Both the position numbers and the translations under genes were made by a program. A stretch of DNA of 33,764 bases from an uncultured Pirellulales bacterium (lineage in GTDB: Bacteria; Planctomycetota; Phycisphaerae; Sedimentisphaerales; Anaerobacaceae). The stretch spans positions 9,874 to 43,637 of the forward strand of contig CAZIAN010000001.1 in assembly GCA_964537355.1 (NCBI GenBank), written 5' to 3'. The notes under the pieces were generated by a model. That model made no database searches. It saw only the letters and a program-made list of their open reading frames with translations, and had not been told where the DNA came from. Each line of letters opens with the position of its first letter. Position 1 is the first letter of the stretch. Shown in pieces: positions 20,091 through 31,793 of the stretch.

Positions 20091-20557
20091 TATTTATCAC
20101 GTTCGAACATATCCTTCATACTCGTGGGGCAGTATGTTAGGTTACGTCTTTTTCCTATAATCTTTCTGCTGTAACACCATAAGGTGTGGTAATTATTACA
20201 CCTAATATCTCAAGCTTAGAAACAGACACTGCAATCTATTTAATGTCGGTCAAAATTACATTTGAATAAACCGTGTTTTTAACTCCTCTAAGACATTATT
20301 CGGCTAACCGGCATTCTTGTATTTTTGGCAGTCCAAAAGGATTGATAATAAAATAATGAACATGACAATCGACCGATAATATATGCCAGAAAGACTGCCA
20401 CAAAACCATAGAAAATTGAAGGAAATGACTGGTAAAGTATAGTGCAGATAAAAGAAGCTTCATCTCTGGTATCTATCAGGCCAAAGACGAGCTGATGAAA
20501 TAATCAAAAAAGCCGCCATGTCCGATAAAACATCCGGATGAGCACTTCCTCATTAGG

Positions 20558-20704
20558 CTACGACTCGGAAGATATAGCATCGTTGGAACCGGTCCGGCGA
20601 GTGTCGATTTTTTTATTAAGGCTGGCAATTTCTCTGTTGAGATAAAACATATATCCAAACAGCATTACTAGGAGAACAGAAAAGGACATACATAAGTATA
20701 ACAT
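20558..20704 (-). CDS. ccmD: CcmD-like small membrane protein (48 aa; below the ORF-track length cut-off)
   Basis: Hand translation: MLYLCMSFSVLLVMLFGYMFYLNREIASLNKKIDTRRTGSNDAISSES. GGAG lies 8 nt upstream of the ATG at 20704, which is 17 nt after the ccmC stop. A single TM followed by a charged helix, in the canonical position after ccmC. Confidence 0.65.
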   Translation of the reverse strand: MLYLCMSFSVLLVMLFGYMFYLNREIASLNKKIDTRRTGSNDAISSES

Positions 20705-20721
20705 TGAACAAACTCCATCAA

Positions 20722-21369
20722 TTATTCGGCTTCAAGCCTTGATTTTATTTTCAGAACATCGTTCCTTATCCAAATCAGTATTGCAGCTAACAGCATCGTT
20801 GAGACCATGCCAATCATAAATGCCCCTTTTTGCCACGAGTTGTCGAAGGAAAAGCTTTTCTTGTGTATATCTTCCATAAAACGTGCAGTATAAAGAACCA
20901 TTGGAACGTCGAGAAATGCAATAATCGCAAAAACAGCACAAATCCTGGCTCTACGTTGTTTTGAGCCGGGTAACGAAGACCGTAGGATAAGGTAAACAAT
21001 ATAAAGAAACCAAAGAACAGCAGAGGTAATAAGTCTCGGGCTTGGAGTCCACCAAGGACCCCATTCGGCACGTGAGAAAATCATCCCGGTTGCGTTCAGA
21101 ACCGTTGCAAAAATTGTGCCGACTTCTGCGGTGGCTGATGCTACACGATCCCATGATTCATGGCCTGTGGCCAGATAACCAATTGCAGTTACGAACAACA
21201 CGGTGAAACAGGCGAGTGAACAGATTGAACTGGGCACATGGGCGTATATGATATTGCGGACGGGCGAGTCGGGATTTGCAGCAGGACCCTCTATCCGCCC
21301 TTTTGTTAAGGCCATCCAGGTTGAGCCCAATAAAAGTGTTAAAGTAATAAACATCAAAATCTTTCGCAT
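20722..21369 (-). CDS. ccmC: Heme exporter / heme-handling protein CcmC (divergent WWD motif)
   Basis: Multi-TM 215-aa protein directly after ccmB. Conserved His context IIYAHVPSS. Trp-rich loop EWGPWWTPSPRLITS. Second His in EDIHKKS. Confidence 0.8.
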   Translation of the reverse strand: MRKILMFITLTLLLGSTWMALTKGRIEGPAANPDSPVRNIIYAHVPSSICSLACFTVLFVTAIGYLATGHESWDRVASATAEVGTIFATVLNATGMIFSRAEWGPWWTPSPRLITSAVLWFLYIVYLILRSSLPGSKQRRARICAVFAIIAFLDVPMVLYTARFMEDIHKKSFSFDNSWQKGAFMIGMVSTMLLAAILIWIRNDVLKIKSRLEAE

Positions 21370-21372
21370 TTC

Positions 21373-22083
21373 TTACTCCTTAATCGCAAAGCCGAATAAA
21401 AGCCAGCATGCAACAACAAATACGGCGTCAAAGACAATCATATATCCTACTGCCGATCCGAAAGTGCCCACAAAGGCGAGTGCCCCGGTCCCTGCCATTT
21501 CCGGCGGGATTGCACCGAAAACAAGCAGAAGGGCAAAGGTGGCCGGTATCATCATTGGCATAAGTATGACAAGAACTAAAATACTGAGCAATGCCCCTCG
21601 TGCCCTGCTGAGCTGAACAATCGCCGAAAACAATGTTCCGACGCTCGATATGGCAAAATTCCCCAGTAATAATACACCAATCAAAGCAGGCCAGTTGTTG
21701 ACATTTAGTCTGAATGCGACAATAACAACCGGGATGATTATTATCTCAAAGATGCAAAGCAAAACTACATTAACAAACAGTTTTGCCAGGTAAATTGTTC
21801 CTTCGTCAACAGGAGCCAGCAGCAAGGCGTAAATACAGTCCTGCTGCTGTTCGGTTGCGAATGATCTTTCTTGTGCCAGAAGGCCGGCGAATAGAAACGC
21901 TATCCAAAGTGCGACCGGGCCGATGACAGCCTCGCTTTGCAGCACAGCCTCTGAAGCCATTCGCAGAACCCAGACTATCAACATGCCAAGGACTATCATT
22001 GTAGGCAGTACCTGTTTAGCTCGCAGCTCTGTGACAATATCTTTGATAAAAATGGCTTTTAAGCTGAGCCAGAAATATCTCAT
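21373..22083 (-). CDS. ccmB: Heme exporter permease CcmB
   Basis: 236-aa polytopic membrane protein. Its start overlaps the ccmA stop by 4 nt, and it sits between ccmA and ccmC. Confidence 0.75.
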   Translation of the reverse strand: MRYFWLSLKAIFIKDIVTELRAKQVLPTMIVLGMLIVWVLRMASEAVLQSEAVIGPVALWIAFLFAGLLAQERSFATEQQQDCIYALLLAPVDEGTIYLAKLFVNVVLLCIFEIIIIPVVIVAFRLNVNNWPALIGVLLLGNFAISSVGTLFSAIVQLSRARGALLSILVLVILMPMMIPATFALLLVFGAIPPEMAGTGALAFVGTFGSAVGYMIVFDAVFVVACWLLFGFAIKE

Positions 22084-22811
22084 GTTTCGCTCCTGGCATA
22101 GCTTATATAATCTTTCAAAAACCTTGCCGTTTCAATATTGCTTGTCTTGGCGTCAAATATCAGGTTCGACTTGTCCAAAACCACCACGCGATTGCAGCAC
22201 TTGAGGCCGATATCTATGTCATGAGTTGTCATAACAATTGTACCGCCATTATTCGTGAATTCGGTTAAAACAGTGATAAGATGATGACAGGCTTTGGCAT
22301 CCAGGCCGGTAAAAGGCTCATCCGCCAGCAATAAAGCCGGCTGATGTACCATGGCTCGTGCAATAGCTAAACGTTGAAGGAGCCCGCGGGAAAGGATGCT
22401 GGCTGTGTCATATCTATAGGAAAAAAGCCCAACATCCTGTAGTAATTCCGTTATGTAGGTGTCACTGTCTTTTACGCCGTAGAGCCTCGCAAAAAAAGAA
22501 AGATTTTCAAGAACTGTCAGTTCGGGATATACCATGCTTTTGTGAGAAATCATCCCAAATTGTGATTTAGCTTTTTCAGGGTCCTTTCGAATATTGTATC
22601 CGCAAAGCTTAACGGAGCCATTGTCAGGCTGCAAGAGGCCGGCGATGATACGAAGAAGCGTGGTTTTACCCGCCCCATTGATACCGCAAATAAGAACCGC
22701 CTGCCCCGTATCTATGTCAATAGCAATATCTCTCAACACATTCCGTGTATCAAAAGCTTTGCTGACCGATTTAACATTTATAACCATGTCATTCATATCT
22801 TGCAGCAACAC
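22080..22811 (-). CDS. ccmA: Heme exporter ABC ATPase CcmA
   Basis: Walker A GINGAGKTT, signature-like LSRGLLQR, Walker B LLLADEP, H-loop TTHD. The start is uncertain: GTG at 22811, or ATG at 22796 or 22787. Confidence 0.8.
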   Translation of the reverse strand: MLLQDMNDMVINVKSVSKAFDTRNVLRDIAIDIDTGQAVLICGINGAGKTTLLRIIAGLLQPDNGSVKLCGYNIRKDPEKAKSQFGMISHKSMVYPELTVLENLSFFARLYGVKDSDTYITELLQDVGLFSYRYDTASILSRGLLQRLAIARAMVHQPALLLADEPFTGLDAKACHHLITVLTEFTNNGGTIVMTTHDIDIGLKCCNRVVVLDKSNLIFDAKTSNIETARFLKDYISYARSET

Positions 22812-22866: not shown

Positions 22867-23847
22867 TCAGCTTTTTTGGCTACGTAGCCGCCAAAGCACC
22901 AGCATAGCCATCATAGCAAATACCACACACAAAATAATCAAGACTCTGCTATTGGACTTTTTGACAATGAACCCGACAACCTGGAATTTTATCTGTTCAC
23001 CGGCCTTTACCGCAGGGACACTAAAATACTCGACCAAACTGCCATCAGCAGATTTCATCTCCCCCTTTGAATCGCCAAGACCTTTTACTTGCCCTTTATC
23101 CAATAACGAAAAAAACATAAATTCAGATGTAGGCAGACTTATCTTTTTTACGATGTCGATGGTTTCTGAATCAATTTCCAGACTATACGAGAATTCAGCA
23201 TCATACTGCCCGGGGGGAATAGCCATAGTATCGTAGAAACCATCTTTTGTAATAACCAGGGCGTTTTCCTGAAAATATCTCGAAAAGGTCAGATCCTTAA
23301 ATCCTACCGGAAGCATTACTTCTATAACTTTAGTTTTGTCATTTTCATCTTTTTCTACTGAAGTTATCGCCATATCCGAACTGTTATCGAGTCGCATGTA
23401 TTCTGTTATTCGAAGAGAATCAGCTTCAACCTTAATAATAAAATGGTGGACAGTGACGGACAGCTTTGATCTGTCAGTTGAAACCTCATAAACTTCAACA
23501 TGACCGTTAAAAACGGTTTGTCCCGGCTTAAGCACAACAGGGTGTCCGTTAAACATCATGTTCTGGTGTTGTACTCTTGGCAGGGCTGTTATGTTGTTGC
23601 CTGTTGGAACATTTTCAAAAACAGCCTTGCCTTGAGAATCAATGTTACCTTTTAGAGTTTGTGTCGGTTTTCCCAGCTCGAATATGGTTACCAAAACTTC
23701 ATCATTCACAGTGACGGTACCGTTGGCTGTGCTGTTTGTTACATTTATGGTGAGCGTTGTTTGTCTCTGTGTGTCAGTGGTTTGGCTTAAAAGAGGTGAC
23801 GCCGCGAACAATGACGTCAATATTGATATCATCAGGAAATGTTTCAC
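22867..23847 (-). CDS. Uncharacterised exported protein with a C-terminal TM anchor, embedded in the ccm operon
   Basis: GTG start at 23847 (alternative ATG at 23832). Signal peptide ...LFAASPLLSQ. The N-terminal segment resembles a carboxypeptidase-regulatory/Ig-like beta-sandwich (LTINVTN...GKAVFENVPTG). C-terminal anchor VLIILCVVFAMMAMLVLWRLR. No CXXC and no His-rich motif. Confidence 0.7.
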   Translation of the reverse strand: MKHFLMISILTSLFAASPLLSQTTDTQRQTTLTINVTNSTANGTVTVNDEVLVTIFELGKPTQTLKGNIDSQGKAVFENVPTGNNITALPRVQHQNMMFNGHPVVLKPGQTVFNGHVEVYEVSTDRSKLSVTVHHFIIKVEADSLRITEYMRLDNSSDMAITSVEKDENDKTKVIEVMLPVGFKDLTFSRYFQENALVITKDGFYDTMAIPPGQYDAEFSYSLEIDSETIDIVKKISLPTSEFMFFSLLDKGQVKGLGDSKGEMKSADGSLVEYFSVPAVKAGEQIKFQVVGFIVKKSNSRVLIILCVVFAMMAMLVLWRLRSQKS

Positions 23848-23854
23848 GATGTTT

Positions 23855-23953
23855 TTACCGTTCCTTTTCTTTGGTCTGGGTTTGTTTTGTAAGGAGAGGC
23901 AGAATTACAAACAGCACACATACTCCTAATAGTATCCATTTCAAATAGTCCAT
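23855..23953 (-). CDS. Candidate 32-aa single-TM micro-protein between ccmF and the 326-aa gene
   Basis: Hand translation: MDYLKWILLGVCVLFVILPLLTKQTQTKEKER. GAAGGA (overlapping the ccmF stop) lies 7 nt upstream of the ATG at 23953. The stop TAA lies 7 nt before the GTG of the next gene. Hydrophobic core plus a basic tail. Confidence 0.45.
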   Translation of the reverse strand: MDYLKWILLGVCVLFVILPLLTKQTQTKEKER

Positions 23954-23965
23954 TTTTAAGTCCTT

Positions 23966-25984
23966 CTAATTATCTTTTGCTGTTATTGCTTTTTGTTTAA
24001 ATGACGAAAACAAAACAGCTAAAGTACCCAAAACCATAACAAAACTTCCAATCCATATCCAGTTTATTAATGGCTTTATCATGATATGAAGATTTATCAG
24101 CTTCCGGCTGTTGTCAACTTCAGTAAGAGCCAGATAAAGGTCACCTGCGAGCGTTCTTCTAATATCAATCTCGCTGACGTTTTTCTTGCTTGCGCTGTAA
24201 AACGCCTTGGCCGGTTTTAATTGAGCAATCAATTTCTCGCCCTTGTGGACTGAAATATCTGCTGCCAGGGCGGTAAAGTTTCGGCCTTGTTCGACATTGA
24301 GGTCATTGAAGGTCAACTCGTATCCGGCTATATTGGTTTTATCGCCGATTCTCATTGCGGCTGTCTTATCCATATCATAGCCGCCGGAACCTGCAATGCC
24401 GATAAACATAACTGCAACACCCAGATGGACAATCCTTGCGCCATACCATCTAAGATTTCGAGGTGATTTTTTCGCTTTATAACCGACAAAATCAGCCAGA
24501 AGATTCACCAGCACAAAACCGCTTAAAATAAAACATGGTATTGCGGGTGACCCGCTTAAAAGCCATCGTCCCCACCATCCGATGGCTTCGGATATACCAC
24601 TCGGACGTGCTGAGTCCAGTGAACACGTAAACAACCAGACTGTCACCACTGCGGCAAGCGCGATAACTCCCAAAATGATACGCCAGCTTTTATTAAGGCC
24701 ATTTCTAATAAGATGCGGGCAAAGGCCAATGAGCAAAAGCAAAAACAACCCGCCGGGAGCTGTAATCTTTGTAAAGAATTCTGGGGCAAGGGTGACGGGG
24801 GCTCGCGAGGTCCCGGCTTGTGTAGATAGGCTCTCAATAATTTTTATAAACACCTTGCTTAAGAACGGAAATAGTGTTCCTACGAATATCACCAGGGCCA
24901 GCAGCAGCAACAGCCAGTTGTTAAGAATTACAAATCGGTGGCTGGGTATCCCGGCGTTCGGCGGTTCCTTTTTTTTGCGCATATAATTACGCAAAATGAG
25001 TACCCCTGCTATTACCCACACTTGTATCAGCAATACGACGTGCAAAATACCAAGACCGGGATTCGGAAACGCATGGACACTGGAAACAAGTCCATATTTT
25101 GTAAGAAATCTGCCGAAAACACATAAACTGAACGTAAGGATACTAAGCAGCACTGTCCATGTTGCAATTGAAGAACGCCGGTTGTACATTCTGAAACAAT
25201 GGAGTAATGCGGTCGCTGTAAGCCAGGGTATCAGTGAGGAATTTTCTACAGGATCCCACGCCCAATAACCTCCCCAGCCAAGCTCTTCATACGCCCACCA
25301 GGCGCCTAATACAATGCCGGCTGTCAAAAACAACCAGGCAAACATTGCCCACCTCTGGGCCTGTTTAAGAAGTGGCAGAGCGTTTTCTTCGTCAGCCGTT
25401 TTTAGCCGGCCAAAGGCCCATGCAAAAGTTATCATAAAACCCGCATAGCCGACAAAAAGAATCGGGGGATGCAAAACCATCGCAGGGTGCTGCAATAAAG
25501 GATTAAGACCTGCACCGTCGGCTGGTGAAGCAGTCGTATATAATTCAAAGGGATTTTTGTCTTTGTTCAAAATAATAAGAAAAAAAACACTGACCAGATT
25601 GGCTATCATACGGGCATTTGCAGAAAAACTTCTGTGTTTAAATTCAGATTTGCAATATACTATAACCAGAAATACGGCCTGGAACCATAACCACAGCAGT
25701 AACGAACCGGCAGAGCCCGCCCATAACGCGCTTATTTTGTATGGAAAAGGCAGCGCCCTGGAAGTATGCTCAGCGACATAAATTACGGCGAAGTCACTCT
25801 TGACCAACAGTATCCACAGAGCAATCATAGCCACACTTAGACAAGCCATGTATGCAACAGTCGCATTGCGAGCACTTTTGATCAAACCCGTGTCTTGGCG
25901 AAATGAACCTAACAGGTCAATTACAACCGCATAGCCGCTTAAAAAAAGCGCAAGTAAGAGAGCGAAATTTCCAAGTCCTGCCAT
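23966..25984 (-). CDS. ccmF: Cytochrome c heme lyase subunit CcmF
   Basis: 672-aa polytopic protein with the canonical WWD motif WGGYWAWDPVENSSLIPWL. It starts 4 nt after the ccmE stop. Confidence 0.9.
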   Translation of the reverse strand: MAGLGNFALLLALFLSGYAVVIDLLGSFRQDTGLIKSARNATVAYMACLSVAMIALWILLVKSDFAVIYVAEHTSRALPFPYKISALWAGSAGSLLLWLWFQAVFLVIVYCKSEFKHRSFSANARMIANLVSVFFLIILNKDKNPFELYTTASPADGAGLNPLLQHPAMVLHPPILFVGYAGFMITFAWAFGRLKTADEENALPLLKQAQRWAMFAWLFLTAGIVLGAWWAYEELGWGGYWAWDPVENSSLIPWLTATALLHCFRMYNRRSSIATWTVLLSILTFSLCVFGRFLTKYGLVSSVHAFPNPGLGILHVVLLIQVWVIAGVLILRNYMRKKKEPPNAGIPSHRFVILNNWLLLLLALVIFVGTLFPFLSKVFIKIIESLSTQAGTSRAPVTLAPEFFTKITAPGGLFLLLLIGLCPHLIRNGLNKSWRIILGVIALAAVVTVWLFTCSLDSARPSGISEAIGWWGRWLLSGSPAIPCFILSGFVLVNLLADFVGYKAKKSPRNLRWYGARIVHLGVAVMFIGIAGSGGYDMDKTAAMRIGDKTNIAGYELTFNDLNVEQGRNFTALAADISVHKGEKLIAQLKPAKAFYSASKKNVSEIDIRRTLAGDLYLALTEVDNSRKLINLHIMIKPLINWIWIGSFVMVLGTLAVLFSSFKQKAITAKDN

Positions 25985-25988
25985 ATTT

Positions 25989-26387
25989 TTACTCCACTTT
26001 TGCCTTGTATTTTGATTCGCATTTTGTCATGAGGGTCTTGGCCTTAAAGGATTTGTTTTCGTCCAGCCTGCCTTCAACTACCACTTCAATGTCATCGGTA
26101 AAATTGTCCGGAACAGTTCCTTCATAAATTACTGGAATCTCTGTTTTGGTTCCGGCCAGAGTAAAGGTCAGGTTCATTTTCTGTAAATCACGATTCACGC
26201 TTCCAGGCTTGACTCTGCCGGCGATTCTGAATGAATAGTTATTCATATCAGAAATGTTGGCTGAGAATTCATCCACGGAATAATAATACGACCACGATGA
26301 CTGCATTGCCTGGAATGTGAAATAACCCAGGCCGCCCCCGATGACAGTTACACCTATCAGAATTTTCAAAATCATTTTTGTTTTCAT
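25989..26387 (-). CDS. ccmE: Heme chaperone CcmE, Cys variant (CxxxY instead of HxxxY)
   Basis: 132 aa. N-terminal membrane anchor ILKILIGVTVIGGGLGYF. OB-fold-sized body (FRIAGRVKPGSV...VVVEGRL). C-terminal TKCESKY, with Cys123 at 26019..26021 (TGC) and Tyr127 at 26007..26009 (TAC). Confidence 0.85.
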   Translation of the reverse strand: MKTKMILKILIGVTVIGGGLGYFTFQAMQSSWSYYYSVDEFSANISDMNNYSFRIAGRVKPGSVNRDLQKMNLTFTLAGTKTEIPVIYEGTVPDNFTDDIEVVVEGRLDENKSFKAKTLMTKCESKYKAKVE

Positions 26388-26607: not shown

Positions 26608-27660
26608 TCACCTGAGGTCATTAATATTCAACTCCTTGTCAAAGACCAGTGTCAATGCCCGGTAATAAGTAAGCATCGCTTTTTCCACTTCTCCCCGAGC
26701 CTGATAAATCTGGCCTAATTCATAAAACGCCCTGCCGGACTTTGGATTCAGCTTTGTTGCTTCAAGAAGTAGCTTTTCTGCTTCTTCAAAATTACTCATT
26801 TGTCGATTTGCCCAGCCGGTTATGAGCAGCAACTTTGACTTCTCGATATATCCTCTGGTCTGAACTCCATCAAGTATTTCCAAAGCGGATTTACCCTGGC
26901 CTATAGAACATAAAAGGTTGCCGATTTCCAGAGCCAGTTCGACAGAATTAGGATCGAGTTCCCTGGCTTGTTTCATTTGGGTGATAGCTGATTCAATTTG
27001 TCCCCTCCCCTGCAGCATCTTTGCCATTTGAAGGTGTCTTTTAACTCGTGCTGCAACTGTAGCGTTAGTTACGGTTTTTACCTGACCTGCATTATTAGGA
27101 TCTATCTCCTGAGCTATCCCCAGTGCCTGATTCAATCGAGCATGTATTACTGGTTCGAAATTGTACCCGTGACCTGCTTCCACCCAAAGTACTTTGTCCT
27201 TATCATCTGAAATTATCACGGTTGGTGTTGCGATTATGCCAAATTTCCCCCATAACTTGTATTCTTTGTCCTTAACTACGTGAACAAAAGAGAAAAGTTC
27301 ATTTGGGTCTGATTCGTTGGGAAATGACTTAAAAAATGTTTGACTGTTGGGGTCATCGATGACGATTACAACACTCAGGCTGTCTTGCTGACCAGTCAAG
27401 TTGCAAATAATTTTTTCTAATTCTTTTGTAGCTCGTGTTGAATTTTTATGTTTGGCGGATAAGAAAGCCACCATCAGCACTTTTTTGTTACCATGTTTAT
27501 AATCGAAGAGTTTACCAGAGACGTCTAATGCTGAAAACTCCGGCATTTTGTTGCCAATGTCGATTCTGCGTCCGGCACAGTTTGCTTTATGACCCTGCAG
27601 AAACGAACAGATCATAACAATATAAATAACATAAAAGGTTGTTTTACGATTCATTATCAT
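26608..27660 (-). CDS. Exported thioredoxin-fold (TlpA/CcmG-like) domain lacking the CXXC motif, fused to TPR repeats (CcmI-like)
   Basis: N-terminal hydrophobic signal/anchor. Redoxin-like GNKMPEFSALDVSGK...KKVLMVAFLSAKHKNS...GIIATPTVIISDDKDKV, with AKHKNS where WCxxC is expected. The C-terminal ~150 aa carries TPR-like repeats (A..YYRAL, G..AFYELGQIY). Confidence 0.7.
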   Translation of the reverse strand: MIMNRKTTFYVIYIVMICSFLQGHKANCAGRRIDIGNKMPEFSALDVSGKLFDYKHGNKKVLMVAFLSAKHKNSTRATKELEKIICNLTGQQDSLSVVIVIDDPNSQTFFKSFPNESDPNELFSFVHVVKDKEYKLWGKFGIIATPTVIISDDKDKVLWVEAGHGYNFEPVIHARLNQALGIAQEIDPNNAGQVKTVTNATVAARVKRHLQMAKMLQGRGQIESAITQMKQARELDPNSVELALEIGNLLCSIGQGKSALEILDGVQTRGYIEKSKLLLITGWANRQMSNFEEAEKLLLEATKLNPKSGRAFYELGQIYQARGEVEKAMLTYYRALTLVFDKELNINDLR

Positions 27661-27718: not shown

Positions 27719-29056
27719 CTACGGGGCGGAATAATCCACGGCTTTTTCTCTATCATAATCCTTCGGTAAATGACAACCGGGTGCGCAACGGCCTCCAGTT
27801 TCTGTCTTTGAGAAGCCAACCGGCAGCTCCCACATTCCGTATGGCACACTCTTGCGAATATGTTTTGGAAGGTCGCTCGCGTGTGTCTGATGGCAGGCTC
27901 GGCACGTCCTTCCACGACGTTCCTTGTTAACGTGTAAAAAGTGCAGGTTAGTACTTCCGTTTCTAAAGTCTGTGAGAGTATTTGTTTCCGGCGTCCATAC
28001 AAGGTCCTTCGAGTGACAACCGAAACAAAGCTCATAATTCTGTTCCGAAAACGGAGCGTAAAATATCGGTGGATATTCTTTCGCCAGGAGTCTGAAATAT
28101 TTGCTACCGTGGGTGACATGACATCCACTGCAATCACCGTCTTTGACGGGGCCGTGAAGATATTTCTTATCTTTGATCTGGTCTGTGAAAGCAGGCAGAA
28201 CTTCATCTTTGGTTATTTGCTGTGGTTTATCATGACAGGTCATGCAAATCGTTTTCGGATCGCTTTTCAGCAGGAATTTGACTGACGAGGCATGTGGAGT
28301 ATGACATTTCAGACAACCGTCTATATCAGAGACAACGCTATGCTGGTACATGGAGTTTTCAGCAACATTCTGTATATCCTTATGACAAGTGTAACAAAGA
28401 TAGGGTGCGAAATCTTTAACCATCTTTGGATTACTGGCGCCATGAGGATTATGGCAGCCGATGCAGTCGTTCTTTGCCGGCTCGTGAACAAACTCATATT
28501 TTTTTAACTCGTCTTGTGTTACAACATGGCAGGAAAAACAAAGCTCGGAGGGTTCGGCAACCAGTAAACTTTTATGGTCTGAACTGTGAGAATTGTGACA
28601 GATTGTACATTCACCGACCGCTGTTGGCCCATGTAGATATTGAAATCCTTCGGTAATTTTATGGCAGTTGCTGCACAGAGCAGCGACGTTTTTTTCCAGA
28701 AGCAGGGATTTATTATCACTACTGTGAGGGTCATGGCATTGAATACAGTCACCCGTCTTAAGGGGCTCATGAACGACCTCTTTGCTTGTTTGTTCCAAAT
28801 GACAGTATTCGCATAGGTCTTTGCCCTGACGCACAAACTCATAGGTATGTTCTTCCGGTTTCAATGGTTTGTGGCACGCTTTACAGTCACCAAGTCCCAC
28901 CGGTCCGTGTACGAAAGCTTTTGTGCCGTAGTCGGCATGACATTCTCCTGTAACGCATGTTTTTTGTGGCGTAGTTGGTTTTTCCACTGCAAGTACGTTG
29001 GAAACCAAAATAAAACTCAGCACAACAACTAATTTCTTACCATATTTGCTAAACAT
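27719..29056 (-). CDS. Periplasmic multiheme cytochrome c (13 CXXCH + CX4CH + CX3CH; c7/c3-type repeats)
   Basis: The ATG at 29056 follows GGAAGGTGGG. Signal peptide MFSKYGKKLVVVLSFILVSNVLA. 13 CXXCH motifs counted by hand, six of them as CxxCHxxH. In addition CVTGECH (28937..28957) and CAPGCH (27770..27787). Confidence 0.9.
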   Translation of the reverse strand: MFSKYGKKLVVVLSFILVSNVLAVEKPTTPQKTCVTGECHADYGTKAFVHGPVGLGDCKACHKPLKPEEHTYEFVRQGKDLCEYCHLEQTSKEVVHEPLKTGDCIQCHDPHSSDNKSLLLEKNVAALCSNCHKITEGFQYLHGPTAVGECTICHNSHSSDHKSLLVAEPSELCFSCHVVTQDELKKYEFVHEPAKNDCIGCHNPHGASNPKMVKDFAPYLCYTCHKDIQNVAENSMYQHSVVSDIDGCLKCHTPHASSVKFLLKSDPKTICMTCHDKPQQITKDEVLPAFTDQIKDKKYLHGPVKDGDCSGCHVTHGSKYFRLLAKEYPPIFYAPFSEQNYELCFGCHSKDLVWTPETNTLTDFRNGSTNLHFLHVNKERRGRTCRACHQTHASDLPKHIRKSVPYGMWELPVGFSKTETGGRCAPGCHLPKDYDREKAVDYSAP

Positions 29057-29205
29057 TGTCCCACCTTCCATTCTTTTTTATAAATTCAAGTTGAAGTGGC
29101 ATCGTTACGCCACACATCAGTACCGAATACCGTACAAAAAAGCTTCCAAAATAGTATCTGCTGTTTTTCATATATTTTCCGTTTTCCGACTCTTAACAAT
29201 TTATC

Positions 29206-30381
29206 TTAATTCGCTGCTTTGGAACTCGAAGCTTGTCGCCTGTAAAGAAGGACCATTGTCCCGGAAGCGGAGCTATGGTGCTTTGGTTTGTTAAGTTCCA
29301 AAACTAACTGTTTCCTGGTTTCACTTTCCTCAATACTCGCAATAATAGCAGGAGAGAGCAACTCTTCTGAACCTTTCTTCCAGTCATTTTTAATATTCGC
29401 ACTGTTGGAAAAATCCTCGATGCTGAAAGTGTATGTTTTCTGAGCAAAAGGATATTCATTTTTTAGTTTGGCTTTTTCGGCATGTTTTTTGCCGTCCTTG
29501 GAATAAAACAACCATGGTTCGGAGCCTTGTGCGGTCACAAAAACATAATTTCCCTGTGTGGTTCCTATATCAAAATCAGTAAACTGAACACGAAGCGGAA
29601 GATCCTTTTTCATATGTGGAGATGACGGGAACTTCGACCAAAGCCACTGTTCATAATTATCATTGCCGTTATCAAGATTAATCTTAATCGCAGGATTGAC
29701 AGGTTTATTTGACATATTGGTCACTTTTTTTGTTGTGGTATCGATCGAATAATGCGGCAAATATTCCAGAATCTTCAGTTTATAATCGCTTATGGGTAAG
29801 GTTATCGTATCTCCTGCATTAGCGACATATTCAAGTGGCTTATTTGTGTCATTGCCCCAGACCGATACAATGCCGATTGACTTGCCGGAGGTTAGTTCTC
29901 GCATGATCTTTTCGATTCCTTCGGAACTGTGGAGTTTAACGATTTTAATACCTCCGATTTGTGATGATATCGACTGTTTGGCTGGATCTGCTGAACTCAG
30001 CCAGATATCCTGATTGAGGTTTTCGCCCTTTGCCTTTATTTGTACTACTGCCCCCCCTTTAGGATCTTCTACTATGGAAGTCTCCCACTTTAGATCTGGT
30101 AAATACTGCATGAGTCTGATTTTAATTGGTGAGCCCATTAACGGTAGAGCCTTATCAAGCATGGTTGTCTTGTTCTCGTTGGGGACTTTTACCGGGAACC
30201 GCATCATAGACCCGTCCATACCATTTTGAACCACTATTTCCCATGGCCCGCTTAACATTGCCTGCCGCATTTCTGGGGAATAACCGTAAGCTCGGCTCGA
30301 AAATACTGAGAGGCCTGCGATCACAAGGATAACAATATTGATAACACTTGCATGTGCTCTTAATTTAATAATACTTTTCAT
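29206..30381 (-). CDS. Uncharacterised cysteine-free exported or membrane-anchored protein between the two cytochrome genes
   Basis: The ATG at 30381 lies 8 nt after the stop of the upstream cytochrome gene. N-terminal hydrophobic segment INIVILVIAGLSVFSS. Beta-rich. A recurring motif appears four times: IKIRLMQYLPDL, YKLKILEYLPHY, LRVQFTDFDIGT, YTFSIEDFSNSA. No Cys residues. Confidence 0.7.
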   Translation of the reverse strand: MKSIIKLRAHASVINIVILVIAGLSVFSSRAYGYSPEMRQAMLSGPWEIVVQNGMDGSMMRFPVKVPNENKTTMLDKALPLMGSPIKIRLMQYLPDLKWETSIVEDPKGGAVVQIKAKGENLNQDIWLSSADPAKQSISSQIGGIKIVKLHSSEGIEKIMRELTSGKSIGIVSVWGNDTNKPLEYVANAGDTITLPISDYKLKILEYLPHYSIDTTTKKVTNMSNKPVNPAIKINLDNGNDNYEQWLWSKFPSSPHMKKDLPLRVQFTDFDIGTTQGNYVFVTAQGSEPWLFYSKDGKKHAEKAKLKNEYPFAQKTYTFSIEDFSNSANIKNDWKKGSEELLSPAIIASIEESETRKQLVLELNKPKHHSSASGTMVLLYRRQASSSKAAN

Positions 30382-30389
30382 AATCGGTC

Positions 30390-31793
30390 TTATTGCACCT
30401 CACTAATTATTTCATTCGCTTTAAGCAGTATTGCTTCGGTATATTTAAAATTGTGAACACCCCAACTGCCGTCAGCTTCTACCGAATCAATAAGTTCTTT
30501 TGCCTGTGTTATCTTCTCTGTTGATTCTTTGGCTTTCTTTTCATTAGTCTCGTAATCTAAGCTTTTAAGTACTTTTTCCAGCCTGTTGTTGACTTGTTCG
30601 TGTAATTTTTTGATACTCCCCTGCCAAAATGAAATATATTGATTGCCGGTTCCAGGTTCATGGCATTTATCACAGGCTCGAGGTACTGCTTTGGCGACTT
30701 TTCCAAAGCTGTCTAATGCTCCAGGTTTTTTTTGGGCCTTTTCGATGTGACATCCGGTACATTCCACGTGCGTAAGAAACATGGGGCTGAGAACTCGATC
30801 TGTCTGCGTGTCTTGCATTGGATGTTGGGTTGCGTAAATGGTGCGCTGGACCTGGTGGGTGTCGCTGTGACAGCTCTGGCAATCCAGCATGTCTGAAATC
30901 GATGTTACCTCTTTCTTACCGTGTAATATTTTTCCATGGCATTCAAAGCACTCAACTTTATGGCCATTAGTATGGGCTTTATGCAGTTCTACACTGTCAT
31001 ATTGATGTTCTTTAGCCTCAGTTGCCAGCTTGTCGGCCAAAAGAATCTTCTCGGCATCGGTGTAGTTATGACAGTTCAAGCATACACTGTCATCTATTTT
31101 GCTCGTCTTCTGTATTTCCTTCTTGTGGCAGGAATCTTCACAGCTTGCATTATAAGAAACAAACTCAGAATGGTTAATTGAAACTAGTCCTCTCTGAATA
31201 ACTTTATTTGGCACTTCATGGCAGCTCTTACAACTTGTCTGGACAAGCTGCTCGCCGGCCTCGGTGTTCCTGAGGAAATGGCATGTGAAACATGCGTCAT
31301 TGTTGACGCTGAAATGCTCGTTACCCTCAAAGTGGCTGTGACAAGTACCACAGGTGATATTTATTCCATCGACCTCTTTTTTCATATGATTCTTATGAGT
31401 GAATTTAACACCGTTGAAGTCGATGTCCTTTGTCAGCAGCTCTTCCGTGCTGTGACATTCCGACCTCAGACAGGATTCGTCTAAAATGGTGGCGCTTGGT
31501 TTCGTACCCACCCTGCCGACAATGCAATCGATCGCTTGTGACAGGCCGTTTATCTTGCCCTTGACGTGACCCATCAATCCGGGCTGGAGATGACACTCAA
31601 GACAATTCACTTCGCTGTGGGTCGACGTCTTCCAGTTGTCATAATAGTTATTCATTATATGACAGGAATTGCAAAATCCCGGCTGCTCGGATACAACGAT
31701 GGCACCTGAGGCAGCAACCATAACTACCGCAGCTAATAATAATATTTTCACTTTCCAGTTTAGCTGTTTAATTTTGCTTATTAATGACTTCAT
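30390..31793 (-). CDS. Membrane-anchored NapC/NirT/NrfH-type multiheme cytochrome c with a C-terminal extension (10 CXXCH + CX4CH + CX3CH); putative quinol dehydrogenase
   Basis: N-terminal TM helix followed by FCNSCHIMNNYYDNWKTSTHSEVNCLECH, the NapC/NrfH signature spacing. 10 CXXCH motifs counted. In addition CLRSECH (31452..31472) and CEDSCH (31125..31142). Confidence 0.85.
   Translation of the reverse strand: MKSLISKIKQLNWKVKILLLAAVVMVAASGAIVVSEQPGFCNSCHIMNNYYDNWKTSTHSEVNCLECHLQPGLMGHVKGKINGLSQAIDCIVGRVGTKPSATILDESCLRSECHSTEELLTKDIDFNGVKFTHKNHMKKEVDGINITCGTCHSHFEGNEHFSVNNDACFTCHFLRNTEAGEQLVQTSCKSCHEVPNKVIQRGLVSINHSEFVSYNASCEDSCHKKEIQKTSKIDDSVCLNCHNYTDAEKILLADKLATEAKEHQYDSVELHKAHTNGHKVECFECHGKILHGKKEVTSISDMLDCQSCHSDTHQVQRTIYATQHPMQDTQTDRVLSPMFLTHVECTGCHIEKAQKKPGALDSFGKVAKAVPRACDKCHEPGTGNQYISFWQGSIKKLHEQVNNRLEKVLKSLDYETNEKKAKESTEKITQAKELIDSVEADGSWGVHNFKYTEAILLKANEIISEVQ

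Follow-up and report, generated by a model that had tools for sequence, protein, structure and literature searches.

A cysteine-type CcmE in a CcmH-less System I* operon of a planctomycete related to the Sedimentisphaerales

Does a heme chaperone that carries a cysteine where the Escherichia coli protein binds heme by a histidine reveal a foreign origin, or is it simply the form that is normal in its host lineage? The question is raised by a stretch of 33,764 nucleotides (the window, by which we mean the whole stretch of DNA that was analysed) from the metagenome-assembled genome (MAG) of an uncultured planctomycete (GCA_964537355.1, contig CAZIAN010000001.1). It contains an open reading frame (ORF) for CcmE, the heme chaperone of System I of cytochrome c maturation (Ccm), in which a cysteine takes the place of the canonical heme-binding histidine. 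A first-pass annotation, made from the sequence alone, had seen in this cysteine, together with the lack of ccmH and ccmG and an AT-richer composition, the signs of a lateral acquisition that included the adjacent cytochromes. We have found that the cysteine-type CcmE is real but largely ordinary, since the Cys form is common across many bacterial phyla. The most probable reading, to which we give roughly 85%, is that the ORF is the CcmE of a complete CcmH-less System I* operon, in the normal planctomycete form and related to those of other Phycisphaerae. System I* has been described before (Allen 2006; Goddard 2010; Stevens 2011, PMC3601427), and the window is a new host lineage for this known and widespread variant.

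The cysteine column and the operon of ccmE

The Pfam family CcmE (PF03100) matches the ORF at 25989-26387 with an E-value of 1.8e-28 and 99.2 bits (cut-off 24.6), the match spanning residues 33-129 of the protein and positions 2-98 of the 99 in the profile. The C-terminal end of the translation is TLMTKCESKYKAKVE, and the TKCESKY tail that had been pointed out there, with its TGC and TAC codons, is exact both in motif and in coordinates (Table 1). Four solved CcmE structures can be aligned to the protein of the window (8CE8, 1SR3, 2KCT and 1J6Q). In the alignment to 8CE8 and 1SR3 (LAKHDENY vs MTKCESKY) C123 falls on H130 of E. coli and Y127 on Y134, confirming that the cysteine occupies the column of the heme-binding histidine. 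By sequence alignment C123 also falls on the Cys of the CcmE of Desulfovibrio vulgaris (2KCT), and TLMTKC is common to both proteins. C123 is the only cysteine of the window CcmE. Family and residue column together support the annotation as a Cys-type variant of System I. The locus does not belong to canonical System I, having a Cys in the His130 column and no second ccmE in the genome.

Of the 120 CcmE homologues that are closest (68-100% identity), 119 keep the CxxxY motif, in the form C-x-S-K-Y and nearly always as CESKY. The labels on these 120 homologues are Planctomycetes, Phycisphaerae or Sedimentisphaerales, in agreement with the earlier impression of a PVC-like genome (Planctomycetes, Verrucomicrobia, Chlamydiae), here more precisely Planctomycetota, Phycisphaerae, with homologue labels of the Sedimentisphaerales type. 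Among CcmE proteins encoded next to related CcmF genes, in more than 10 phyla, 99 of 104 were Cys-type and five His-type. Given this conservation in close homologues and in CcmF-adjacent CcmE alike, the Cys motif is neither chance nor a sequencing error.

From about 14.9 kb up to its right end, the window carries genes on the minus strand only. The operon reads ccmE-ccmF-(32-aa peptide)-X-ccmA-ccmB-ccmC-(ccmD-like), which is the order that had been annotated, the two extra ORFs between ccmF and ccmA being a peptide of 32 amino acids (aa) and a protein of 326 aa that we call X. The heme-delivery and ligation set of System I* is represented by CcmA, B, C, E and F, all recognized by profile, and by CcmD, recognized by position and topology. 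The CcmF of Thermus thermophilus (6ZMQ) aligns end to end with that of the window (3.5e-68). The CcmF WWD motif, WGGYWAWDPVEN, is intact, and the histidine sites HPP, LLH, SVHAF and VHLG are all present. Another ORF (20476-20658) that had been considered as ccmD was dropped for not being membrane-like, and the ORF at 20558-20704 was put in its place. We also agree that the window has no protein with a CcmH-type LRCxxC or a CcmG-type CXXC motif: no real gene carries LRCxxC or WCxxC, and the LRCxxC strings that occur are confined to antisense frames of 39-51 codons.

The search was extended to the complete genome, a MAG of 5.79 Mb in 937 contigs (88.8% complete, 3.3% contamination). It contains a single copy of ccmE, and a second one of the His type (HxxxY) was searched for and not found. 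CcmH (PF03918) gave no match in this genome even at E<=1, while control genomes were positive, and none of the 32 sampled genomes of the order with ccmE, of which 21 are of high quality, had a match at E<=0.01, so that the lack of CcmH characterizes the lineage. The case of CcmG is different. The best match in the genome to dsbE/CcmG (TIGR00385) reached 64.6 bits, below the cut-off of 123, but several periplasmic WCxxC thioredoxins (TlpA/ResA-like) are encoded elsewhere in the genome, none of them in the operon, as well as two CcdA/DsbD-type membrane proteins outside the window. The earlier claim that both genes are lacking therefore holds for ccmH, and for ccmG is reduced to the apparent lack of a dedicated one. 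As for System II, the only ResB match in the genome was a cross-match to the C-terminus of CcmF; searches with phmmer and tblastn, using queries from the same genus, found no CcsA or ResB-like ORF, and TIGR03144 had no match at 1e-25.

We compared 80 loci around the nearest CcmF relatives, one genome per species, from Acidobacteriota, Fidelibacterota, Bacillota (Neobacillus), Chloroflexota, Myxococcota, Thermodesulfobacteriota, Planctomycetota and others, later planctomycete loci being added for the counts. CcmE was present in 39 of 301 sampled Planctomycetota genomes, and every CcmE that could be read (27 of the 29 loci fetched) was Cys-type. In planctomycetes the Cys type is the normal form of System I, and it is also usual in many other non-proteobacterial phyla. 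This serves as a calibration, in that a Cys-type, CcmH-less CcmE is no sign of archaeal or Desulfovibrio ancestry.

Neither does CxxxY in general imply that CcmH is absent. A CcmH-like gene was found in 37 of the 70 assessable loci, and in 34 of the 70 it stood together with a CcmE that was CxxxY-type (or unread). This co-occurrence has been noted before, in a survey where bacterial examples of System I* were many, CPSKY was the commonest motif and about one third had CcmH (Stevens et al. 2011, PMC3601427). Many Cys-type operons in other phyla have the layout ccmE-F-H-I'-X-A-B-C, where H belongs to the true CcmH family (PF03918, 3e-19) and I' is a small protein with membrane and coiled-coil parts and in some cases a zinc ribbon, matching the N-terminus of CcmI weakly (TIGR03142, 5.6e-4). 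All the Planctomycetota loci have E-F-X-A-B-C without CcmH.

The operon can be set against four known arrangements. With the System I* of Desulfovibrio desulfuricans and D. vulgaris (Allen et al. 2006; Goddard et al. 2010; 2KCT) it shares the Cys in the His130 column, the Tyr at +4, ccmE-ccmF ahead of ccmABC(D), the lack of CcmH, the apparent lack of a dedicated CcmG, and a CcmF and CcmABC that are otherwise canonical, the Desulfovibrio operon being taken here from its description. It differs in the motif (CESKY vs CPSKY), in the 32-aa peptide and X that stand between ccmF and ccmA, in a CcmC WWD loop without the second Trp and the Asp, and in its host, a planctomycete. The archaeal Ccm of Methanosarcina acetivorans is similar in having a Cys-type CcmE and no CcmH; in that organism the Cys of CcmE is needed for heme attachment, and both CcmH and CcmI are absent (Gupta, Shalvarjian and Nayak 2022, PMC9084895). 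However, archaeal Ccm has no ccmD, a ccmF split in two and scattered genes (PMC9084895), whereas the window has a single ccmF, a ccmD-like ORF and one operon. The Cys-type operons with CcmH (Acidobacteriota, Neobacillus, Chloroflexota and others) resemble it in the Cys CcmE, the E-F...A-B-C order and the small membrane protein and X between ccmF and ccmA, but carry a CcmH (PF03918), usually with CxCGC, and their X often has a cytoplasmic tail that resembles the N-terminus of CcmI, while the X of the window ends just past its membrane helix. Finally, CcmA, B, C, E and F are homologous to those of the canonical System I of E. coli (CcmABCDEFGH) and the logic of the pathway is the same; the differences lie in the Cys for His130, the lack of CcmH, the apparent lack of a dedicated CcmG, and the gene order.

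Some variants seen among the loci deserve mention on their own. The H protein mostly has CxCGC (CTCGCGQ, CQCGCG, CMCGGC) instead of the canonical LRCxxC, as in L044:9880-10473, L024:10039-10692 and some 40 other loci. Within the order, one operon (L141, genome G471) has E-F-A-B-C without X, and in three others (L143-L145, from G452, G500 and G498) ccmE is directly followed by ccmA-B-C with no ccmF nearby. Cultured Bacillaceae (Neobacillus/Bacillus; L028, L031, L044, L045, L050, L068 and L072) possess a complete System I operon of the Cys type, in which CcmH, the small protein and X are all encoded. Firmicutes are usually described as users of System II, and a Cys-type System I in Bacillaceae is therefore unexpected.

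Table 1. Features of the ccm operon and of the neighbouring cytochrome genes; positions are those of the window
Feature	Position	Strand	Description
ccmD-like ORF	20558..20704	-	48 aa, single helix; 17 nt downstream of ccmC; recognized only by position and topology
ccmC	20722..21369	-	Heme-loading membrane protein; Pfam Cytochrom_C_asm 5.2e-21, TIGR01191 3.1e-23
ccmB	21373..22083	-	ABC membrane subunit; Pfam CcmB 4.4e-23
ccmA	22080..22811	-	ABC ATPase; TIGR01189 4e-44, 150.7 bits (cut-off 131.6)
X	22867..23847	-	326 aa, uncharacterised; signal peptide, tandem all-beta sandwich periplasmic domains, C-terminal membrane helix
32-aa peptide	23855..23953	-	Single helix, begins MDYLKWILLGVCVLFVILPLLTKQ; ORF between ccmF and X
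ccmF	23966..25984	-	672 aa, heme lyase; Pfam Cytochrom_C_asm 1.2e-40, CcmF_C 8.6e-43
ccmE	25989..26387	-	132 aa; N-terminal membrane anchor and OB-fold heme chaperone, Cys type (C123-E-S-K-Y127)
Tyr127 codon (TAC)	26007..26009	-	Column of E. coli Tyr134 (heme iron ligand)
Cys123 codon (TGC)	26019..26021	-	Column of E. coli His130 (heme-binding residue)
Trx-TPR protein	26608..27660	-	350 aa, Cys-less; directly upstream of ccmE; weak Thioredoxin_8/Redoxin and strong TPR matches
13-CXXCH cytochrome	27719..29071	-	Periplasmic; neighbouring substrate
Cys-free protein	29206..30381	-	391 aa; between the two cytochromes
10-CXXCH cytochrome	30390..31793	-	NapC/NirT-type; neighbouring substrate

Heme transfer and the two extra ORFs

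By analogy with the work on D. desulfuricans and M. acetivorans, CcmC, with CcmD, would pass heme to the membrane-anchored CcmE, where Cys123, replacing the canonical His, would bind a heme vinyl, most likely as a thioether, and Tyr127 would ligate the iron. CcmAB would free the holo-CcmE at the expense of ATP, and CcmF, with its WWD motif and histidines intact, would attach the heme to the CXXCH sites of the multiheme cytochromes of this anaerobe without any CcmH. The disulfides of the apocytochromes may be reduced by the generic CcdA/DsbD and TlpA-like thioredoxins, or their reduction might be dispensable in an anoxic habitat.

The alternative that bears on this scheme is that CcmE binds heme non-covalently through the Cys thiolate, in a chaperone cycle unlike the covalent His/Cys model. 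The CcmE of D. vulgaris, also Cys-type, has been reported to bind heme non-covalently in vitro (Aramini et al. 2012), and the CESKY motif of the window differs from the commonest CPSKY. However, covalent binding has been shown for the CcmE of D. desulfuricans and Cys-dependent heme attachment for that of M. acetivorans, and we consider the non-covalent cycle unlikely here.

The WWD loop of CcmC (window positions 21022-21063) is degenerate, reading WGPWWTPSPRL vs WGxWWxWDxRL. In a survey of this motif all Phycisphaerae-type operons were found to have Ser for the Asp of WWD, and throughout the order the Trp before it is Pro or Ala; W-D/E was retained in nearly all of 57 CcmC proteins of other phyla. 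Since the change is clade-wide, it is presumably tolerated.

Protein X has no match to any Pfam or NCBIfam family in profile searches. Its AlphaFold2 model (predicted local distance difference test, pLDDT, 89) shows tandem beta-sandwiches followed by the C-terminal membrane helix. The nearest folds were Ost1/ribophorin I and the N-domains of M1 aminopeptidases, at a template modelling score (TM-score) of <=0.37, and no function can be read from the fold search, because it gave only generic beta-sandwich resemblances. The profile of X matches 9,426 representative proteins, of which 6,444 reach 1e-10. The cytoplasmic tail of many X proteins is common to the small CcmI-N-like proteins, into which an iterative profile search drifted until it was confined to the periplasmic core. 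Of the 70 assessable related loci, 42 (among them L013, L047, L079, L083 and L087) have X between ccmF and ccmA; it occupies this place in Cys-type operons from at least 10 phyla, and was seen in none of the four loci of the His type. Most ccm loci of the order of the window also have it. X is a very large unannotated family tied to Cys-type ccm operons.

The 32-aa peptide keeps the pattern K-W-I-L-L...W-P-L-L in seven of the ten ccmF-to-X gaps that were checked, i.e., six of nine loci of the order plus L013, and its conservation reaches neighbours of about 45% identity. It sits where other phyla encode the small membrane protein that resembles the N-terminus of CcmI, and may be a minimal version of that protein; the similarity to the first helix of these small proteins is weak (13-20 bits) and driven by composition. 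An attractive idea, which we regard as possible rather than probable, is that the peptide and X are real and undescribed components of System I* that, in the CcmH-less planctomycetes, replace CcmH/CcmI in the handling of apocytochromes at CcmF, the degeneration of the CcmC loop being a co-adaptation of the clade. Both are obvious candidates for the CcmH/CcmI function that is missing from System I*, and they are the part of the operon that most merits further work.

Distribution in the order and descent of the cluster

We sampled 251 genomes of the order, from 110 genera. CcmE was found in 33 of them (13%), belonging to 27 genera, and in two of the five genomes of the genus of the window. ResB-like proteins were found in 183 genomes (73%), and CcsA-like proteins also in 183. 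Four genomes had both CcmE and a ResB-like protein, 29 CcmE only, 179 a ResB-like protein only and 39 neither (Fisher p=3e-15, shared ancestry ignored). In the two genomes that were inspected the short ResB-like gene adjoins that of a 260-aa CcsA (L157 and L158 are among the System II loci noted). The three genomes of the same genus without ccm have System II and lack the gene of the Trx-TPR protein that precedes ccmE in the window. System I* and System II are near-exclusive in the order, with switching even within the genus of the window, and such a situation within one planctomycete order provides a natural comparison for why cells use one or the other. The ccm cluster is clearly accessory and behaves like a mobile or exchangeable module, a minority alternative to System II that has been gained, lost or exchanged together with multiheme cytochrome genes.

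Two observations on single genomes can be added. System II is the majority state in the order (G440, G470, G538, G509 and others). Markers of both systems coincide in G480, G515, G523 and G368 by ResB, and also in G358 by CcsA.

The descent of the cluster was followed with CcmF. In a broad tree of 118 N-terminal halves, in which archaeal and named Desulfovibrio sequences were not included, the window falls in a clade of 13 rows of its own order (support 100) with a stem of 1.22 changes per site. This clade is nested in one of 21 rows (support 97) together with four Phycisphaerae (L047, L079, L083 and L087), two other planctomycete genomes and two loci from outside the planctomycetes, L017 (Deferribacterales) and L091 ("Proteobacteria", with a TLMTKCPSKY tail like that of Desulfovibrio), which are long-branched and CcmH-less. 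The loci of Desulfobacterales and Thermodesulfobacteriota were placed elsewhere. Within the limits of this sampling, the Desulfobacterota or archaeal affinity that had been suggested is not borne out, CcmF nesting among the Phycisphaerae, and an origin from either source was rejected. Because the clade of the order has a long stem and deep internal diversity, the residence is old. Taken together, the results point to a block of ccm and cytochrome genes that has long resided in the Phycisphaerae and that was gained, lost or exchanged within the order. What stands of the proposed lateral acquisition with the adjacent cytochromes is the patchiness within the order, the conflict between tree and taxonomy and the fact that the ccm-less genomes of the same genus also lack the cytochrome-module gene, but not the source.

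A different history, in which System I* would be ancestral to the order and strictly vertical, with many independent losses to System II and no lateral exchange, appears quite unlikely. All the CcmF sequences of the order, with the exception of the very divergent G302 and G303, do form one well-supported clade, the synteny E-F-peptide-X-A-B-C is conserved across the order, and errors in MAG binning or taxonomy could mimic an incongruence. However, in the tree of full-length CcmF the window and its congener (family f1) group with two genomes of family f3 with support 100/99, and the approximately unbiased (AU) test rejects a single f1 clade (p=1.2e-4). Besides, with the cluster in so small a fraction of genomes and genera, and both states in one genus, strict vertical descent would require very many losses.

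The AT-richer block remarked on at first is real in comparison with the left half of the window, but the deviation is mild: the GC content of the ccm block is about 41-43%, against a genome mean of 46.3% (standard deviation, sd, 2.9% in 5-kb windows), i.e., 1-1.5 sd below the mean, at about the 5th-10th percentile. Boundaries of an island could not be defined by comparison within the genus, the window ending at the contig end, G440 not being syntenic to the left or to the right of the beta-galactosidase gene and G535 being broken into contigs at the relevant points. That the operon and the neighbouring cytochromes are an island taken up recently, with a Desulfovibrio-type bacterium or an archaeon as donor, is highly improbable, for although the composition, the first description of Cys-type CcmH-less systems in precisely such organisms, the position of L017 and L091 inside the 21-row clade and the patchiness of the cluster even within a genus could be cited in its favour, the nearest CcmF outside the order are those of the four Phycisphaerae, the stem is long and the clade deep, every readable planctomycete CcmE sampled is Cys-type, X is common to other Phycisphaerae operons and absent from L017 and L091, the GC deviation is only about 1.3 sd, and the Desulfobacterales and Thermodesulfobacteriota loci lie elsewhere in the tree, which was built without archaeal and named Desulfovibrio sequences.

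We therefore keep to the reading of a complete CcmH-less System I* operon in its normal planctomycete form, at the probability given above, while recognizing several points that weigh against it. Absences in a single fragmented MAG are soft, although here they are backed by the relatives. The identification of ccmD is unconfirmed, a CcmD profile search on the ORF at 20558-20704 having given no match, and the loss of the Trp and Asp of the WWD loop in CcmC could affect heme loading. The in vitro report on D. vulgaris makes the thioether step uncertain. Most of the matches to System II markers were below the NCBIfam curated cut-off, the adjacency of the two genes was checked in two genomes only, and the Fisher tests take no account of shared ancestry. 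The group submitted to the AU test was chosen after the first tree had been seen, and the taxonomy of MAGs may be imperfect.

The multiheme cytochrome module

In the genome, CXXCH motifs number three or more in at least 27 ORFs, which are spread over many contigs (including C16, C151, C131 and C128); among them are one of 986 aa with 26 motifs, the highest number, and one of 751 aa with 16. With so many multiheme candidates genome-wide, the ccm system serves far more than the cytochromes that adjoin it in the window.

These adjoining genes form a module that was found again in three distant relatives (L154, L155 and L156), with the same four members, i.e., the NapC/NirT-type cytochrome, the Cys-free protein of about 390 aa, a cytochrome with paired CXXCH and, in the last place, the thioredoxin-like Trx-TPR protein. 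Between the module and ccmE-ccmF, two of these relatives have some 8 kb with further genes for cytochromes and NHL-repeat proteins, a stretch that the window does not have. In the third relative a stretch of the same type also follows the module, and the fetched locus ends before the ccm genes. The ccm cluster travels with a conserved multiheme cytochrome module, and marks a Sedimentisphaerales-like minority with cytochrome-based capacity for respiration or extracellular electron transfer.

At the place of FWATWCPPC in the TlpA-like protein of the same genome, the Trx-TPR protein has FLSAKHKNS, and the cis-Pro loop is retained. The copy next to ccmE has no CXXC, and FLSxxQxxS appears in essentially all of 120 homologues. 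We had considered it as a substitute for CcmG/CcmI specific to System I*. This was rejected: the gene was present in 15 of the 251 genomes of the order, nine of them with CcmE and six with System II only and no CcmE. Being found with either maturation system, the Trx-TPR protein belongs to the cytochrome module and not to the core of ccm.

As a minor observation on the surroundings of the module, a response regulator and a 6TM_PilS-type kinase precede it in two of the three relatives, and an Rnf/Nqr cluster is located upstream of it in two relatives.

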